From sequence record PX104380.1: 64,000 nt of DNA, one strand, 5' to 3'. The notes under the pieces are model-generated. The model did not search any database and was not told the origin of the DNA. It saw only the letters and a list, made by a program, of their open reading frames with translations. This document shows, one piece after another, positions 3,851 through 43,687 of the stretch. Numbering within the stretch: position 1 is the first letter of the stretch; each line of letters starts with the position of its first letter. Source of the DNA: a phage. The translations under genes were made by a program, and so were the position numbers.

Positions 3851-4489
3851 ATGGGGCTTCGGCCCCTATTCTCGAGGAAACAAGTGATTATTTCTAAGTT
3901 TGTTACAATAAAACCAAGAAATCATTCAAAAATGTGGTCGACAATTCTGGGATATAAAGTATCATATCATGATACAGTATCTGTTCCAATAGAATTAATG
4001 CCAAAGAATAGTAATAAAATAGTTGACGCTAAATGTGATTTGTGTGGTACTAAATTTAGTAGAAGCATTCAGCTTTTAAATAGAACACCCACACATGCAT
4101 GTAGAAAATGTAGCATTAAACAAGTTGCTATTAAAAATTCGGAAGTTCAATCTGGAATAAGCAGACCATGGCAAAGAGGCGATAAACATCCTCGATGGAC
4201 TGGTAAAAGAAAAGAGTTTGCATTATATGCTAGTAGAGTTCATTCTATAACTAAGTCAGCTAAAATAAGAAAAATTTGGTCAAAATGGCCAAATGCTGAT
4301 AAAATAGGAGTGTGTGGCGTAGAAGGTGCTTACCAACTCGATCATAAAGTATCTATCAAATATGGATTTGATAATTTAATTCCGCCGGAAATTATAGCAA
4401 GCGTAAAAAATTTAGAAATAATCACTTGGGAATCTAACCGAGAAAAATCAAAAAGAAATAGTGTAGATCTTTGGGATTTACTAGAATGA
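3851..4489 (+). CDS. free-standing HNH homing endonuclease inserted between genes 18 and 19
   Basis: frame open from TTG 3845 immediately after gp18 stop; in-frame ATGs at 3851 and 3932 (true start uncertain); CxxC...CxxC zinc-finger-like pairs and C-terminal HNH-like motif DHKVS..G..N..N; no gene here in T4 as I recall. Confidence 0.6.
   Translation: MGLRPLFSRKQVIISKFVTIKPRNHSKMWSTILGYKVSYHDTVSVPIELMPKNSNKIVDAKCDLCGTKFSRSIQLLNRTPTHACRKCSIKQVAIKNSEVQSGISRPWQRGDKHPRWTGKRKEFALYASRVHSITKSAKIRKIWSKWPNADKIGVCGVEGAYQLDHKVSIKYGFDNLIPPEIIASVKNLEIITWESNREKSKRNSVDLWDLLE
3853..3866 (+). other. RNA hairpin GGGGC-UUCG-GCCCC directly 3' of gene 18, embedding the ATG at 3851
   Basis: perfect 5-bp GC stem with UUCG tetraloop read from sequence; no U-run after it. 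Confidence 0.5.
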
Positions 4490-4515
4490 TTCTAAAGGCC
4501 TGTTTCGGCAGGCCA

Positions 4516-4523
4516 TATAAATA
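4516..4523 (+). promoter_or_regulatory. late promoter TATAAATA (distal copy), preceded by hairpin 4497-4514
   Basis: GGCCTG-N6-CAGGCC hairpin followed by ATATAAATAC. Confidence 0.45.
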
Positions 4524-4574
4524 CACTATATCCTTAATTCTTTAATTCTATATGCCCTAGGTTAAACATAGGGA

Positions 4575-4582
4575 TATAAATA
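4575..4582 (+). promoter_or_regulatory. late promoter TATAAATA for gene 19, preceded by hairpin 4555-4573
   Basis: CCCTA-N9-TAGGG hairpin followed by ATATAAATAC; 14 nt upstream of ATG 4597 with SD AGAGG. Confidence 0.55.
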
Positions 4583-4596
4583 CTACAGAGGCTAAT

Positions 4597-5088
4597 ATGT
4601 TTGTAGATGATGTAACACGAGCGTTTGAATCTGGTGATTTTGCTCGACCTAACTTATTCCAAGTAGAAATTTCTTATCTTGGACAAAATTTTACGTTCCA
4701 ATGTAAAGCCACTGCTTTACCAGCTGGTATTGTAGAAAAAATTCCAGTCGGATTTATGAACCGTAAAATTAACGTGGCAGGCGATCGTACATTCGATGAC
4801 TGGACTGTTACAGTAATGAACGATGAAGCTCATGATGCTCGCCAGAAGTTTGTTGATTGGCAAAGCATTGCTGCTGGTCAAGGAAACGAAATTACTGGTG
4901 GAAAACCTGCAGAGTATAAAAAGAGCGCTATTGTTCGTCAATATGCTCGTGATGCTAAAACAGTAACAAAAGAAATTGAAATTAAAGGTCTGTGGCCTAC
5001 TAACGTGGGTGAACTTCAATTAGATTGGGATTCAAACAATGAAATCCAAACCTTTGAAGTAACTCTTGCTCTCGATTATTGGGAATAA
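4597..5088 (+). CDS. 19: tail tube protein gp19
   Basis: 163-aa ORF, ATG with SD; T4 size and position. Confidence 0.95.
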   Translation: MFVDDVTRAFESGDFARPNLFQVEISYLGQNFTFQCKATALPAGIVEKIPVGFMNRKINVAGDRTFDDWTVTVMNDEAHDARQKFVDWQSIAAGQGNEITGGKPAEYKKSAIVRQYARDAKTVTKEIEIKGLWPTNVGELQLDWDSNNEIQTFEVTLALDYWE

Positions 5089-5093
5089 AATGA

Positions 5094-5111
5094 ATGGGGA
5101 GAAATCCCCAT
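5094..5111 (+). other. hairpin ATGGGGA-GAAA-TCCCCAT 3' of gene 19
   Basis: 7-bp stem with GAAA loop; no clear U-run, so a terminator role is uncertain. Confidence 0.4.
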
Positions 5112-5120
5112 CCTGCTTAA

Positions 5121-6745
<1,625 letters not shown>

Positions 6746-25476: not shown

Positions 25477-26441
25477 TGTATTCTTTAGAGGAATTTAATA
25501 ATCAAGCAATAAACGCAGACTTCCAACGTAATAATATGTTCAGCTGTGTTTTTGCTACAACTCCATCAACTAAAAGCTCATCGTTAATAAGCTCAATTAG
25601 TAACTTTGCTTATAATAACTTGGGTCTAAATTCAGATTGGTTGGGATTAACTCAAGGTGATATTAATCAGGGAATTACCACGCTAATTACCGCTGGCACA
25701 CAAAAACTAATAAGAAAATCGGGAGTCAGTAAATATCTTATTGGCGCTATGAGTCAGCGTACTGTTCAGAGTTTATTAGGCTCATTTACAGTTGGTACAT
25801 ATTTAATTGACTTCTTTAACATGGCATATAACTCATCTGGATTGATGATATACTCTGTAAAAATGCCAGAGAATAGATTATCCTATGAAACTGACTGGAA
25901 CTATAATTCTCCTAATATTCGTATAACTGGGAGAGAATTAGACCCTTTGGTTATTTCATTTAGAATGGATTCAGAAGCTTGTAACTATCGTGCAATGCAA
26001 GACTGGGTTAACGCTGTTCAAGACCCAGTAACTGGATTACGTGCTTTGCCACAAGATGTCGAGGCAGATATTCAGGTTAATCTTCATGCTCGTAATGGAT
26101 TACCTCATACTGCGGTGATGTTCACTGGATGCATTCCAATATCAGTGAGCGCTCCTGAGTTATCATATGATGGAGATAACCAAATAACTACATTTGACGT
26201 TACTTTTGCGTATAGAGTGATGCAGGCTGGAGCAGTTGATAGACAAGCTGCCCTTGAATGGCTTGAATCTGCTACTATAAATGGTATTCAAAGCGTTCTC
26301 GGAAATAGTGGAGGTGTTACTGGACTATCTAATTCGCTTTCACGACTTAGTAGATTAGGGGGAACTGCAGGAAGCATTTCAAATATTAATACTATGACAG
26401 GAATTGTCAATTCGCAGAGTAAAATATTAGGAGCAATATAA
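25476..26441 (+). CDS. 54: baseplate tail tube initiator gp54
   Basis: 321 aa; TAATG overlap with gene 48. Confidence 0.9.
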   Translation: MYSLEEFNNQAINADFQRNNMFSCVFATTPSTKSSSLISSISNFAYNNLGLNSDWLGLTQGDINQGITTLITAGTQKLIRKSGVSKYLIGAMSQRTVQSLLGSFTVGTYLIDFFNMAYNSSGLMIYSVKMPENRLSYETDWNYNSPNIRITGRELDPLVISFRMDSEACNYRAMQDWVNAVQDPVTGLRALPQDVEADIQVNLHARNGLPHTAVMFTGCIPISVSAPELSYDGDNQITTFDVTFAYRVMQAGAVDRQAALEWLESATINGIQSVLGNSGGVTGLSNSLSRLSRLGGTAGSISNINTMTGIVNSQSKILGAI

Positions 26442-26443
26442 CA

Positions 26444-26465
26444 ATGGGGACCGAAAGGTCCCCAT
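26444..26465. terminator. bidirectional hairpin AUGGGGACC-GAAA-GGUCCCCAU between gene 54 and the convergent 96-aa ORF
   Basis: 9-bp stem, GAAA loop, T-run on plus side. Confidence 0.6.
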
Positions 26466-26469
26466 ATTT

Positions 26470-26760
26470 TTATTTACGGAATGAAATAAAAGCAGCAACT
26501 GAAGCAACTAAACTGTCTTCAATATAAACTTCAATTTTTACCGGAGCTTCTGATTCAAATTTACCTGTTACTACACCCTGAAAAATACTTTCAGTCTGTT
26601 TTGGCTTTGAAAAATTTTCAGAAGGAAAAATTCCGAACTTTTTATCTGTTCCGAAAATTTTAATAAATTCATCATAAACTGCTTCATTGAAAGCGTTATC
26701 AGCGGGAATAACGCCTTCAACGACGAGTTCTTGACCTAAAAAGCGCAAAGAAGATTTCAT
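26470..26760 (-). CDS. hypothetical protein, 96 aa (alt.-3 position)
   Basis: ATG with SD GAGGA; own early promoter upstream and terminator downstream. Confidence 0.6.
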   Translation of the reverse strand: MKSSLRFLGQELVVEGVIPADNAFNEAVYDEFIKIFGTDKKFGIFPSENFSKPKQTESIFQGVVTGKFESEAPVKIEVYIEDSLVASVAAFISFRK

Positions 26761-26791
26761 TTTGTGTTCCTCATGTTATGTCAGTAAAACT

Positions 26792-26821
26792 ACTATAACA
26801 CAATACGAGGGACTTGTAAAC
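26792..26821 (-). promoter_or_regulatory. T4-type early promoter (GTTTAC-N18-TATAGT, extended -10 TG)
   Basis: -35 GTTTAC fused to stop TAG of the upstream alt paralog; part of a 53-bp element 51/53 identical to 42044-42096. Confidence 0.55.
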
Positions 26822-28878
26822 TACATTTTGAACTTTTTAGACATTCCGTTAATGTTAACCAAAGAAGCCAAGATTTGAGAAACTTCGTTTTCCTCTTCTT
26901 TTGATTCTTCTACAAGGAATTGATTAAATCCAGCCATTGGACGAACTTCACCAGTTTCCATTAGATGGTCGCCATCATATACCGATTCTTCTAATTGTTC
27001 AGAAGGAGGAACGATTGTGCCTTCGATTAGATACTTGTTATAAGCAGTTTCTTTCATCATGTACGTACTCACTTTATTAATCTTCAGCAAAATTCCACGC
27101 GGTAGAATAACTTCAGCTTCCGATGGAAATCCTGATAAATGACCTGGAACGATAACTTTAACTCGTTCAGCTCCTTTAATTACCATACCTACATTAGTTT
27201 CAGCGTCTTCATTCGCATATGTAGAATGACTACCCATATGCATTAAATCTTCAGCATCAACTGAACCTTCTCCTTCACCAGAAAATACTGCTCCGGAATC
27301 ATCTAAGGCCATATAATTTTTACCATATTCACCGAAGATATTTGGCTTGAGTGAAGTAGATACAAAGTTCTTGAAATAGAACATTTTATTTTCTATATTA
27401 TGACGTAAAGTTTTAAAAGTAACTTCTTGGCCACGGTAAAGTGTAGTTCCCGGAGGAAGAACTGAACCTTTAGCAAATGCAGAATCCAACGTCTCAATGT
27501 GCTTAATAGCACGTTCCATATATTCTTCACGTGTAGAATCAGGTTTACCTAAAAGGAATGAGTTCATTTCAACATATGAATCTGCACAATAATCTTCAAT
27601 TACATCAGATTCAGCCTGAGTTAATCCTTTTGGAGTTACTTCAGTGCTTGCATATTCATATGCCTGAGCAGCAGATTCATCAATCAATTTATAAATTCCA
27701 TTCATTACAAATTGAATAATAGCTGTCTTTTCATCTGGCGTAGCTTTAGAACCTTTAACTAAATCATTGATAATTTTCTTAATAACATCAAAGCTATTAG
27801 AAATATTAATGTCAGCAAGATCGCTTAAAATTTTATCAGTTTTATAATCAAAGAATTCTTTATTCTTTAAATATTCTTGAGAACCTTGATATGTTATATC
27901 GCTCTGCAGCTTGATAGATGGATCACGTAAACGTGCATGGGCCAATGCAATATGATTTCGGAAGCTTTCGAGTTCATAATCACTAGATTTAAAACGAGAA
28001 GCGCTTCTCATACCGCCTATAGCTCCTTTGCTGAAGTTTGAACCAATCTGGATAACACCAGAGTTCATCGGACCTTCTGCTTTATATACCGGAACTTTAG
28101 ATTCAAACTCTTGATATTTCTTAGCAGCGAAGCTATCACCCTGAAGTGAAGCATCGACAGTAGAATATTGAGCTTGTGCTGCTAATCGACGACTAATTTT
28201 AGTTTTTTGAATAACAGCTTGATCCGTGCGCTTATCATTTTCTAAAGCAATAGAAGCAGCAACAGCGACAGCTTTAGGAACAGCATTACCGGTTTTAACA
28301 TCTACATAAACATCACCAACATTTGATTCAACTTTTGTGAATAACTCAGTTGAAATAGGAGGTACACCTGGAATGTCTTCTAAATTGGCATTTTTACGGT
28401 AAACCATAATATATGCGTACTTTTTATCATAATCCCAGATTTCCTTTAAAAGAACATATCGACCTGCTCCTTTAGTACGTACTAAACGGTCAGCAATAAC
28501 TTGCATTTGACGAGCTGCGCCATTTGTTTTACTTTTTAGTACGCGGAATAGGCATGCATCAATTTTATACTGCTTTATTGTTTGAAGAGCAGTATCAAAA
28601 ACAGCATTAATGACGCCAATTGGATTTCCACCCAAGTTTTTAAGTTTAACTAATGATAGTTTCTCATTAACACCTATCATTACGATATGCATCATTTTAT
28701 CGCCTGGCTTAACGTTTTTATTTGTATCACCGCCAGAGGTGTATGTACAAAATCTAAATCCAGGAAGCACGCTTTCTTCGCCGGCTTGAATAGCAAAAAT
28801 TTGTGGTATTTTATGCTTAGGATTTAAGTTAACAACCGGCGCCGAAGCGCCGTCAAATAATTCTGTAATAAGTTCCAT
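26821..28878 (-). CDS. Alt-like ADP-ribosyltransferase paralog (685 aa)
   Basis: N-terminus MELITELFDG highly similar to the upstream paralog; ART triad YRGQ / FVSTSL / SEAEVILPRG intact. Confidence 0.85.
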   Translation of the reverse strand: MELITELFDGASAPVVNLNPKHKIPQIFAIQAGEESVLPGFRFCTYTSGGDTNKNVKPGDKMMHIVMIGVNEKLSLVKLKNLGGNPIGVINAVFDTALQTIKQYKIDACLFRVLKSKTNGAARQMQVIADRLVRTKGAGRYVLLKEIWDYDKKYAYIMVYRKNANLEDIPGVPPISTELFTKVESNVGDVYVDVKTGNAVPKAVAVAASIALENDKRTDQAVIQKTKISRRLAAQAQYSTVDASLQGDSFAAKKYQEFESKVPVYKAEGPMNSGVIQIGSNFSKGAIGGMRSASRFKSSDYELESFRNHIALAHARLRDPSIKLQSDITYQGSQEYLKNKEFFDYKTDKILSDLADINISNSFDVIKKIINDLVKGSKATPDEKTAIIQFVMNGIYKLIDESAAQAYEYASTEVTPKGLTQAESDVIEDYCADSYVEMNSFLLGKPDSTREEYMERAIKHIETLDSAFAKGSVLPPGTTLYRGQEVTFKTLRHNIENKMFYFKNFVSTSLKPNIFGEYGKNYMALDDSGAVFSGEGEGSVDAEDLMHMGSHSTYANEDAETNVGMVIKGAERVKVIVPGHLSGFPSEAEVILPRGILLKINKVSTYMMKETAYNKYLIEGTIVPPSEQLEESVYDGDHLMETGEVRPMAGFNQFLVEESKEEENEVSQILASLVNINGMSKKFKM

Positions 28879-28881
28879 GAT

Positions 28882-30975
28882 TTATCCTTGAACGAACTTG
28901 TAAGGCATGTTTGTAATATCTATGCAAGACGCAATAATTCCAAGAGATGATTCTACTTTCTGTTTAACATTTGATGAAACAAATGATGCAAAGTCAACTC
29001 TGTCTTCTACTTTAATATCACCTGTCATTGCAACCAATTCACCAGTTTCCATTAGACGGTCACCGTCATAAATTACCGATTCGGTGAGTTCTTCCGTAGT
29101 CATAACTTCAGCTTGAATGAGTTTTGTATTATTAGATGTTGTTCCGTCATTATTAGAAGCATCAGTTATTTTATTAACTTTGACCATCAATCCGCGCGGT
29201 AGAATAACTTCAGCTTCTGTTGCTATTCCGAGACTTCCTGGATATACAACATTAACTTTATGAGCTCCATCAATTGCCCATCCTATTTGAACTTTAACAT
29301 ATTCAGGATTTTCTTTATACGCTCTTATTTCGTTTGGATTAATAGTTATTCCTTCTTCATTTTTATCAACTGTTAATTCATTACGAGCTTCTGGTTCTAA
29401 AAGACCAATACCAGCATGTGTGATTCCAAAACGTCCAAAAATGATAGGAGTTAAAGAAGTAGATACAAAATTTCTGAAGTAGAACACTTTATTTTTAACT
29501 AACGCTTCATATATAGGAGCAGTCATACTTTGAGCACGATAAACTGTAATGTCTTCTGGTATACGGTCACCATTTTCAAAAGCTGAATCTAAGTTATTTA
29601 TAGCAGATTCAATTTCTTTTTCACTCATTACATCGTATCGTTCTGGATTGTAACGACCTAAAAGAAGATTATTGATGTCAGTATATCCTGAACCGCAATA
29701 TTCTCTAATGCCACGCTTTTGTGATGGAGTATATTTAGAACCATCGCGTGCAATAGTAATATCAATCATTGGACCAGCACCAATTCCAGAAAAACTGTAA
29801 ATCATTCGTTTGAGGAATTTAGTTTTTGCTGCGTTCCAGGAATTTTTAGTTATTTCTTCCCAGACTTCATCTGGCTGCCCTTTACGATTTTTATTATGTT
29901 TATCAAGCCATTTATCTTTGTATTCTTCAAAGAATTTATTAACAGCTGCTGCGTATTTCTCTAAACATTTTATTGAAGTAGTTGGTTCATTTTTGATTGC
30001 GTTAAAAATTACATCTTTAATTTTTTCTGAAACTTCATCAACCTCACTTTTTGAAAAGAATTTATAGTCATAGTGAAGTTCATCTGCGGTTCCTTCGGCA
30101 ATAATTTTTGCTGCCTTAGTTTTAGAAGCTAATGAATTAATTCCAAGCTTCATTTCTTCTGCTTCGGGAATTAAAGGAGCGGTAGCAGGTTTATTGAAAT
30201 TAGCTGCGGTAGATTCATACTTATGGAATAATTCACTTTCAAATCTAGAAGATTCCAACGACTGACTTTGCGCAATTGCTCTACGGGAAATTTTAACTTT
30301 AACGATTACAGCTTGGTCAGAACGTTTATCATTTTCTTGTGCAATAGATGCTGCAATTGCCTCATTTTTAGTTACTTGAGCTCCAGTATCTTTATTGATA
30401 TAAACATCACCGACCTTCGATTCAACCTTAGTAAAGAGCTCGGTACTAATTTCCGGAACCCCTGGAATGTCTTCTAGTGATACATTTTTGCGATGTATAA
30501 GAATATATGCATACTTTTTATCGTAATCCCAGAGTTCCTTAAGAAGGACGTATCTACCACCTGAACGACTGCGGATGAGTCTATCAGCAATAAGTTGAAT
30601 TTGTCGAGCTTGACCGGCGGTTTTAGACTTAAGAATACGAAGCATGCAGGCATCAATTTTATATTGACGCATTGTTTGCATTGCAACAGTAAAAACTGAA
30701 TTGATATAATTAATCGGGCTTGGCCCAAGACCTTTTAATTTAGCAATTGAACCTTTAGCAGTTAATGTAAAAGGAACAATATGCATCATTTTATCGCCCA
30801 TTTTTAAATCGCGATTAGTATCACCTCCAGATGTATAGGTACATAAACGAAAGCCTGGTTGTTCAATTGCATCATCAACATGAACTGAAAAAATTTGCGG
30901 TATTTTCTTCTTTGGATTTAAGTTTGTAATCGGAAGAGTAGTATCTTCGTCAAATAATTCTGTAATTAGTTCCAT
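28882..30975 (-). CDS. alt: Alt ADP-ribosyltransferase (697 aa)
   Basis: N-terminus MELITELFDE; ART triad YRAQ / FVSTSL / TEAEVILPRG; position downstream of gene 30 as T4 alt. Confidence 0.88.
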   Translation of the reverse strand: MELITELFDEDTTLPITNLNPKKKIPQIFSVHVDDAIEQPGFRLCTYTSGGDTNRDLKMGDKMMHIVPFTLTAKGSIAKLKGLGPSPINYINSVFTVAMQTMRQYKIDACMLRILKSKTAGQARQIQLIADRLIRSRSGGRYVLLKELWDYDKKYAYILIHRKNVSLEDIPGVPEISTELFTKVESKVGDVYINKDTGAQVTKNEAIAASIAQENDKRSDQAVIVKVKISRRAIAQSQSLESSRFESELFHKYESTAANFNKPATAPLIPEAEEMKLGINSLASKTKAAKIIAEGTADELHYDYKFFSKSEVDEVSEKIKDVIFNAIKNEPTTSIKCLEKYAAAVNKFFEEYKDKWLDKHNKNRKGQPDEVWEEITKNSWNAAKTKFLKRMIYSFSGIGAGPMIDITIARDGSKYTPSQKRGIREYCGSGYTDINNLLLGRYNPERYDVMSEKEIESAINNLDSAFENGDRIPEDITVYRAQSMTAPIYEALVKNKVFYFRNFVSTSLTPIIFGRFGITHAGIGLLEPEARNELTVDKNEEGITINPNEIRAYKENPEYVKVQIGWAIDGAHKVNVVYPGSLGIATEAEVILPRGLMVKVNKITDASNNDGTTSNNTKLIQAEVMTTEELTESVIYDGDRLMETGELVAMTGDIKVEDRVDFASFVSSNVKQKVESSLGIIASCIDITNMPYKFVQG

Positions 30976-30998: not shown

Positions 30999-31006
30999 TA
31001 TTTATA
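30999..31006 (-). promoter_or_regulatory. late promoter TATAAATA for alt
   Basis: minus-strand TATAAATA 23 nt upstream of alt ATG, following the terminator hairpin. Confidence 0.5.
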
Positions 31007-41191: not shown

Positions 41192-41541
41192 TTAGAAAGG
41201 TCCTGGATGTCTTCTGCGAACTTGTTGAAGGAGTTGTTGATTTGTTTTTCAACCAACCCTGGCTTACGAGCCACCACATCCGCCTTCTTTGTGTCTTTGC
41301 GCAGTTTTTCATTTTCACGCTCAATAGCAGCAATCGCCTCACGATTTTTATTATTCATCGCATCAATATAATTATACTGAATTCGCAAATTATCTAATGC
41401 TAAGGCGTTTTCATTGGCTGTTTTTGTAATTTCAGTAACTGATGTTTCTAATCTTTCTACCTTATTTTTTAAAATAATAGATGTTCCGCCTAATGCTATT
41501 ACAATTAATAGCAAACCTGCTGTAGTATTACTTAATTGCAT
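41188..41541 (-). CDS. pseT.3: inner-membrane spanin (Rz-like)
   Basis: 117 aa; N-terminal TM helix AGLLLIVIALGGTSIIL then coiled-coil-like region. Confidence 0.7.
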   Translation of the reverse strand: MQLSNTTAGLLLIVIALGGTSIILKNKVERLETSVTEITKTANENALALDNLRIQYNYIDAMNNKNREAIAAIERENEKLRKDTKKADVVARKPGLVEKQINNSFNKFAEDIQDLSK

Positions 41542-42038
41542 AAAGTTTTAATAACCTCTACAATATCATCTTGAGAAAGACCGTTAATTAAAATATGATG
41601 TTCAGCCGGAGATTTAGAAATTTTAAAGCATGCCTCAACATCTTCTGCCATATCCGATGCACTACGATTTGGATTACTAATTCCAAGACGATGCTTTCCA
41701 GTCAAAGGATTAACGATGATATAGCATTTGCAGCTATTGATATGAACATTAGGTTGAGTCTGATTAATGAACACTTCACAATCATACTTAGCGAGTTGAT
41801 TTTCTAAAAAGACTTTCATCTCCTCAACCGCATCAGGAAGCATATCACGGGCTTGCTCAAGACGACGATTTCGATATTCTTTAATGGTCGTTTTCCGCTT
41901 GACTTGCTTAGCTAAATCTTTCTTAAGATCGGTGATATATCCAACTCGACGATTTCCTTTAAATACAGAAATCCCATCCGTAGTATCACCGTATGCTTCA
42001 ACAACCATTTCAGTAGTAATAAGCTGCAAATCCATCAT
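41532..42038 (-). CDS. alc: Alc, inhibitor of host transcription
   Basis: 168-aa ORF (T4 Alc about 167 aa); position between rnlA and spanins; early promoter and SD upstream. Confidence 0.8.
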   Translation of the reverse strand: MMDLQLITTEMVVEAYGDTTDGISVFKGNRRVGYITDLKKDLAKQVKRKTTIKEYRNRRLEQARDMLPDAVEEMKVFLENQLAKYDCEVFINQTQPNVHINSCKCYIIVNPLTGKHRLGISNPNRSASDMAEDVEACFKISKSPAEHHILINGLSQDDIVEVIKTLCN

Positions 42039-42066
42039 AAAGTCCTCATGTTATGTCAGTAAGACT

Positions 42067-42096
42067 ACTATAACACAACACGAGGGACTTGTAAAC
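42067..42096 (-). promoter_or_regulatory. T4-type early promoter (GTTTAC-N18-TATAGT) for alc
   Basis: part of the 53-bp element 42044-42096, 51/53 identical to 26769-26821. Confidence 0.55.
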
Positions 42097-42099
42097 AGC

Positions 42100-43687
<1,588 letters not shown>

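Follow-up and report, generated by a model that had tools for sequence, protein, structure and literature searches.

A short gene between gene 54 and the alt genes of a T4-type phage is very likely a conserved single-copy early gene, the orthologue of T4 alt.-3

In the 64,000-nucleotide stretch of phage DNA that we analyzed (record PX104380.1; hereafter the window), an open reading frame of 96 codons lies on the minus strand between a baseplate gene and two alt genes, with a promoter and a terminator of its own. The locus raises the question of whether this is a recently acquired cassette or a resident gene of T4-type phages, and of what its product may do. The initial annotation, made from the sequence alone, leaned toward an acquisition: it described a self-contained, moron-like early cassette whose protein had no motif that could be named. 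The remark on motifs was fair, as the protein belongs to a family, DUF5498, without known function.

The reading frame (26470-26760, minus strand) encodes a protein of 96 amino acids, 10.7 kDa and pI 4.9, which begins MKSSLRFLGQELVVEGVIPADNAF (translation MKSSLRFLGQ...AAFISFRK). The frame, its ATG start and a good SD site (GAGGA, 26772-26768, 7 nt ahead of the ATG) are all present as first described. There are no frames of at least 40 amino acids on the opposite strand, and the only overlap in another frame is a single 49-amino-acid TTG frame. The protein matches Pfam PF17602 (DUF5498) with 213 bits and E = 6e-64 (the gathering cut-off is 27 bits), residues 1-96 aligning to profile positions 1-96, and its PHROG match is phrog_1739, function unknown. 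The homology search that the annotation had proposed leads to T4 Alt.-3 (T4p197, NP_049808; PF17602; phrog_1739), with which 95 of the 96 residues (99%) are shared; the sole change is K54 in the window and E54 in T4. The alignment runs over the full length, a result on which the identification depended. The KIT03, RB69 and IME08 records label the orthologue alt.-3. The window and T4 copies have equal length, promoter-leader and terminator hairpin, and both lie between alt and gene 54. They differ in the leader by one G-to-A change at 26804, which leaves the leader hairpin weaker in the window. The frame is almost certainly the orthologue of T4 alt.-3, with the cis-acting anatomy described below. 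The gene is already known: it has figured in T4 annotation since that genome was sequenced, Pfam and PHROG each have a family for it, and a genetic phenotype has been published.

The gene order in the window is that of the T4 map, with genes 29, 48 and 54 on the plus strand followed by alt.-3, alt, alt, alt.1 and 30 on the minus strand. The description of the cassette as bracketed by late structural genes holds for gene 54, a baseplate gene, and only roughly for the alt genes, which encode a virion-packaged enzyme and lie behind a late-promoter motif (TATAAATA, 30999-31006, minus strand, just upstream of the first alt gene). Upstream of alt.-3 the window has a full-length second alt of 685 amino acids, whereas T4 has only the alt.-1/alt.-2 remnants; in all, positions 26821-30975 hold two full-length alt genes in tandem (685 and 697 amino acids), and T4 holds one alt plus the remnants. 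At the end of the remnant alt.-2, T4 retains the same ...KKFKM-stop joined to the -35 element, from which we conclude that T4 lost the middle of its second alt copy by deletion.

We predict a T4-type early (sigma-70) promoter at 26792-26821 (minus strand), based on a pattern scan and on conservation. A -35 element GTTTACA (26821-26815) is followed by a 17-nt spacer and an extended -10 element TGtTATAGT, with TG at 26800-26799 and TATAGT at 26797-26792; the T4 early promoter class is defined by these same features (GTTTAC(A/T) at -35, TGnTAnnnT as the extended -10, and ~17 nt between them). The promoter is fused to the TAG that ends alt (26823-26821), the last base of this stop codon being the first G of GTTTACA, and 60 nt separate the alt stop from the alt.-3 ATG. 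A generic sigma-70 scan across the region gave 23 promoter-like sites against 23.4 expected, no excess over chance. The T4-early pattern GTTTAC-N14-16-TGNTANNNT occurs seven times in the window, always on the minus strand, against 0.17 expected, and the early promoter claimed in the annotation is borne out. In an alignment of this spacer from 10 phages, GTTTACA, the -10 region and TGAGGA, which includes the SD, are conserved and other positions drift. From the position of the -10 element we place the transcription start near 26785, which would give a short leader (26761-26785, minus strand) with the SD inside it. In the proposed scheme, host RNA polymerase would start alt.-3 RNA at this promoter, the leader of ~25 nt would keep the GAGGA ribosome site free, and transcription would stop at a hairpin common with gene 54.

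The hairpin is GC-rich, lies at 26444-26465 between the tail-to-tail gene 54 (plus) and alt.-3 (minus), and has the sequence ATGGGGACC-GAAA-GGTCCCCAT. A terminator scan and folding predict it to be an intrinsic terminator for both genes (-18.5 kcal/mol, z = -4.5 on the plus strand; -19.8 kcal/mol, z = -4.9 on the minus strand). The bidirectional terminator of the initial annotation is terminator-like on both strands, and its U-tract is better for gene 54 (plus strand) than for alt.-3.

The annotation had also noticed that the promoter is duplicated, and it is. A 54-nt promoter-leader-SD cassette at 26768-26821 is 96% identical to a second copy at 42043-42096, both on the minus strand; the second lies between rnlA (42100-43260) and alc (41532-42038), upstream of alc. 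The Tequatrovirus form of the cassette is found at 1081 places in 582 records, approximately two copies per genome, and the RB69-type (Mosigvirus) form at 151 places in 151 records, once per genome. Since the cassette is single in RB69-type phages, alt.-3 is older than the Tequatrovirus duplication of the promoter-leader. The cassette common to alt.-3 and alc is an example of promoter-leader module reuse in T4-type phages. Promoter-early stem-loop (PeSL) cassettes of T4-type phages, reportedly described by Arbiol et al. in 2010, are similar in having an early promoter that abuts the preceding stop, an inverted repeat that spans the promoter, and near-identical copies at separate loci. They differ in that, at alt.-3, the repeat brings the promoter spacer into pairing with the SD that follows it, and in that the flanked gene is fixed, not shuffled.

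The distribution of the gene bears most directly on its origin. A tblastn search with Alt.-3 found matches in 837 phage records, 499 of them at identities of at least 90% and the other 338 at 33-58%. The 499 compare with 500 Tequatrovirus records for gp54 (at least 95% identity), so that essentially every Tequatrovirus record has the gene. The order alt, a gap of 57-60 nt, alt.-3 and a hairpin, facing gene 54, recurs in 9/9 Tevenvirinae-type phages inspected: T4, RB69 (Mosigvirus), VR5 (Dhakavirus), Marfa, IME523 (Kanagawavirus), SonariX, Melville (Gelderlandvirus), EcS1 (Kagamiyamavirus) and Ursula. Mineola (Jiaodavirus) has a 92-amino-acid gene in the alt.-3 slot with the same arrangement; it is more diverged and below detection by the Pfam model, and hhalign finds it homologous to Alt.-3 (93%, E = 3e-7). 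T4, RB69 and the nearest relative record each have one copy only. The GC content of the window gene (0.33, against 0.36 for the window) is ordinary.

These observations leave little of the idea of a moron-like cassette that recently entered the gap separating the alt genes from the baseplate operon. The gene does have its own promoter and terminator, as morons do, and its promoter-leader nearly duplicates that of alc. Against this, the gene is found at the same position in ~499/500 Tequatrovirus records and in all other Tevenvirinae-type phages inspected, where patchy presence would be expected of a moron; its composition is not foreign, it is single copy, it is under strong purifying selection (below), and the single cassette of Mosigvirus places the gene before the Tequatrovirus promoter duplication. 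We regard a recent insertion as refuted by this distribution, with only a very slight residual probability. The window gene is very likely a conserved, single-copy early gene of T4-type Enterobacterales phages and no recently acquired cassette. The annotation had itself named a finding that would tell against its proposal, that the frame is the T4 alt.-3 homolog, present in all relatives with no variation; identity and ubiquity are as it foresaw, but variation exists, given the identities of 33-58% between genera.

Genome-wide, there is no DUF5498 match in three phages that bear alt, Phi1 (Krischvirus), Acinetobacter phage AB-Navy71 and Aeromonas phage 50AhydR13PP; a match to Alt.-3 is also missing in Morganella phage Rgz1, and 14 control bacterial genomes gave 0 matches. 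An exhaustive search of 1.84 billion representative proteins returned 14 clusters, all but one ~95-111 amino acids long; it revealed neither domain fusions nor relatives in cellular genomes. The exception, a 974-amino-acid coiled-coil repeat protein (E = 8e-4), was judged to be a low-complexity chance match. A word-indexed homology search found close relatives of Alt.-3 only.

In Phi1 (positions 4465-5771 of the piece compared) the slot between gene 54 and alt contains a second ADP-ribosyltransferase of 274 amino acids and an overlapping 161-amino-acid frame that is unrelated to Alt.-3; the pair may be a different two-gene module. Phi1 ORF182, considered as a counterpart on account of its slot, is likewise unrelated. 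In one record, IME523 (positions 582-767 of the piece compared), a gene in the alt.1 position, beside the DNA ligase gene, is annotated as belonging to the 'GnsA/GnsB toxin' family.

Within Tequatrovirus the protein changes little. The window and T4 genes differ by 14 synonymous changes and one non-synonymous change, and pN/pS is 0-0.18 across eight Tequatrovirus copies; as judged from these substitutions, alt.-3 is under strong purifying selection. Longer natural members of the family have internal insertions and still end in FRK, and no natural alleles with C-terminal extensions were found, both statements applying to the few clusters examined. In a few Tequatrovirus contigs (one of 169 kb) alt.-3 is truncated by frameshifts to 56-66 amino acids, each form on 1-4 contigs. 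These could be homopolymer sequencing errors or occasional natural loss, and the latter would fit the dispensability of the gene.

In T4, alt.-3 belongs to the early class in both RNA and protein, according to a time-resolved transcriptome and proteome; the same data put Alt in the late protein class and its RNA in the middle class (PMC9697503, supplement files 4 and 6). By analogy with the T4 orthologue, in which early expression is documented, we expect the window gene to be expressed early. The alt genes could contribute a second RNA. Between the late-promoter motif at 30999-31006 and position 26465 we found no terminator-like site except a weak one within alt, so late alt-alt-alt.-3 read-through transcripts are expected.

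Folding predicts that such read-through RNA would not be read well for alt.-3. The promoter spacer (26812-26800; CCCUCGU...) pairs with ...AUGAGG and hides the alt.-3 SD. The read-through leader fold has -16.8 kcal/mol (z = -1.7) in the window, where the hairpin is weakened by an A.C mismatch at 26804, -23.0 kcal/mol (z = -4.35) in T4, and -31.5 kcal/mol (z = -5.0) in the alc copy, which is far stronger than the alt.-3 copy. RNA that begins at the gene's own start lacks the 5' arm, and its SD is open (-2.2 kcal/mol). Because the SD is hidden in the read-through RNA and open in the shorter RNA, the gene's own early transcripts would be the main source of Alt.-3 in Tequatrovirus. The folds suggest, with moderate confidence, that translation of alt.-3 is gated against read-through, which fits its early-protein class. 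The pairing of spacer and SD is absent from the leader folds of RB69, VR5, Marfa and Melville; those of RB69, VR5 and Melville have only a small hairpin inside the spacer, as PeSL cassettes do.

The same data bear on whether Alt.-3 might be a partner of the adjacent Alt ADP-ribosyltransferase, as a chaperone, inhibitor or immunity factor. The position would suit such a role, with alt.-3 directly downstream of alt across a spacer of ~57-60 nt in every Tevenvirinae-type phage inspected, no terminator separating the two genes and a late-promoter motif ahead of alt. The timing in T4 is opposed, however, as Alt.-3 is early and Alt is late (PMC9697503) and packaged in the virion, and in Tequatrovirus the alt read-through RNA hides the alt.-3 SD. 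Melville has an intact alt.-3 next to a frameshifted alt, and Phi1, AB-Navy71 and 50AhydR13PP have alt with no DUF5498 match anywhere in the genome. We consider a partnership with Alt improbable.

An AlphaFold2 model of Alt.-3, built from an 18-sequence alignment, is very confident (pLDDT 95.6, pTM 0.83). It contains strands at 2-7 and 10-15, a helix at 22-36, a strand at 41-46, a helix at 53-64 and a long hairpin (70-80/83-95), and we predict that the 96 residues form a compact beta-beta-alpha-beta-alpha-beta-beta domain. The structure search that the annotation had called for gave no named relative. Foldseek of the model against the PDB found nothing significant (best E = 0.12, TM at most 0.36), and a profile search of PDB sequences had no match. 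A hot-dog fold, suggested by scattered thioesterase matches, was rejected at these values, with rmsd mostly above 10 A. In BFVD every good structural match is an uncharacterized T4-like phage protein; they include proteins of Klebsiella F48, Salmonella CGG4-1, Enterobacter PG7, Klebsiella BovinicusUrsus, Yersinia TG1 and Morganella MP1. There were no matches to PADLOC and NCBIfam models, no solved anti-defense structure resembled Alt.-3, and an Rfam scan gave sub-threshold noise only. A role as DNA mimic was rejected, as the protein has 14 acidic and 11 basic residues and a pI of 4.9.

Residues M1, R6, E11, E15, F24, P46, F50, G66, E71, F91, F94 and R95 are invariant, and the C-terminus a-F-[IV]-x-F-R-K is retained in all branches except Jiaodavirus. 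From the alternation of residues along the strands, R6, E11 and E15 should lie on an exposed charged face of the first hairpin, which makes them a candidate binding surface. Alt.-3 is among the most conserved early proteins of T-even phages to which no function has been assigned, with a confident predicted fold and no structural relative.

A literature search for DUF5498 returned nothing useful, and the only known phenotype, a published one, is that of T4 alt.-3 in escape from the CmdTAC defense. Vassallo, Doering & Laub (Nature 2024, PMC11618068, and the preprint) report that every T4 escaper of CmdTAC extends Alt.-3, from 96 to 110 or 117 amino acids, and that alt.-3 is mutated in each of the five populations evolved and in each of the six escape isolates sequenced. 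Rescue of CmdTA toxicity, and stabilization of CmdA (the antitoxin) where it would otherwise be lost in a ClpP-dependent way, were seen with the extended protein only; wild-type Alt.-3 is neutral and neither triggers nor blocks CmdTAC (PMC11618068). T4 without alt.-3 is viable, the gene being dispensable in laboratory hosts, is still restricted, and found no alternative escape in 17 further rounds of evolution (PMC11618068). The window carries the wild-type 96-amino-acid allele, which in T4 has no effect on CmdTAC (PMC11618068).

The window gene has the same latent extensions. We translated the frames past its TAA stop (26410-26469, minus strand): loss of the stop gives exactly 117 amino acids (...KYGDLSVPIVILLLIFYSAN), and a 1-nt deletion near the end of the gene gives 110 (...FRSPLLYCS), matching the T4 escape alleles in lengths and in types of mutation. 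The gene is in this sense one mutation short of defeating a bacterial defense system. The tails are unlike in hydrophobicity, with GRAVY of +1.00 (strongly hydrophobic) for the 117-amino-acid form and -0.41 for the 110-amino-acid form. An AlphaFold model of the 117-amino-acid protein has an unchanged core and pLDDT below 50 for residues 101-117, and we predict that the tail is disordered and that the escape alleles consist of the same rigid domain with a floppy tail. Such a tail on a very stable core could be what blocks ClpP-dependent degradation of CmdA. As the two tails differ in sequence and hydrophobicity, a single specific tail motif is argued against.

What wild-type Alt.-3 does may be approached from these alleles. 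That two different tails both work, and that T4 found no substitute after deletion of the gene, motivate the reading that the wild-type protein is a host-directed binder, acting on Clp-dependent proteolysis or on labile-antitoxin defenses absent from laboratory strains; this is our best single guess, offered tentatively, as a possibility well short of probable. A core already docked at the Clp or antitoxin machinery would explain why either disordered tail suffices against CmdTAC, and also why no other route of escape appeared once alt.-3 was gone. We hold it unlikely that wild-type Alt.-3, with its previously unseen fold, serves in nature to modulate Clp-dependent proteolysis of the host or the labile antitoxins of TA(-chaperone) defenses. 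The CmdTAC authors name PinA, the T4 inhibitor of the host Lon protease, as a precedent (PMC11618068). PinA is a T4 protein that interferes with a host ATP-dependent protease, and the extended Alt.-3 alleles act similarly; we found no relation in sequence or fold between PinA and Alt.-3, and the protease effect belongs to the extended alleles only. Were a native partner of Alt.-3 found, it would show whether T-even phages come equipped with a means of influencing host proteolysis.

The escape alleles may, on the other hand, owe everything to the added tail and to a mutable A-rich stop, and be uninformative on native function. The native target would then be another conserved enterobacterial one (for example in transcription, translation, the nucleoid or the envelope), and CmdTAC escape a pure gain of function by the tail. 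To this main rival, taken as a broader class, we give somewhat less than an even chance, and it is the next most likely should the reading of Alt.-3 as a Clp or antitoxin binder be wrong. The neutrality of wild-type Alt.-3 to CmdTAC and the lack of escape on deletion (PMC11618068) are in line with another target, as are the unlikeness of the two tails and the disordered tail on an unchanged core in the 117-amino-acid model. The stop codon lies within a stretch rich in A, AAATAAAAATA, that readily undergoes indels or stop loss, and the protein is an abundant, stable early one. The family is confined to Enterobacterales phages and changes little within a genus, as would be expected for a conserved host target. 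This reading is opposed by the 5/5 evolved populations and 6/6 sequenced escape isolates in which alt.-3 was struck (PMC11618068), and by the 17 rounds after deletion that gave no other escape, which hint that the core of Alt.-3 adds something not supplied by other early proteins.

In the hairpin between gene 54 and alt.-3, two C's are missing from the T4 reference records NC_000866 and AF158101, which read GGTCC in place of GGTCCCC (window 26447-26464; positions 4718-4735 of the NC_000866 piece compared). The full GGTCCCC hairpin is present in the window and, by alignment, in T4 MT984581, and 12 further T4-type records also appear to have it, judged from 903-nt matches to the 901-nt query. 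The two missing C's are probably an old sequencing compression error. They shift the frames beyond the alt.-3 stop, so that the reference text gives extended proteins of 116 and 156 amino acids; the published alleles of 110 (1-nt deletion) and 117 (stop loss) amino acids are reproduced by the full hairpin only.
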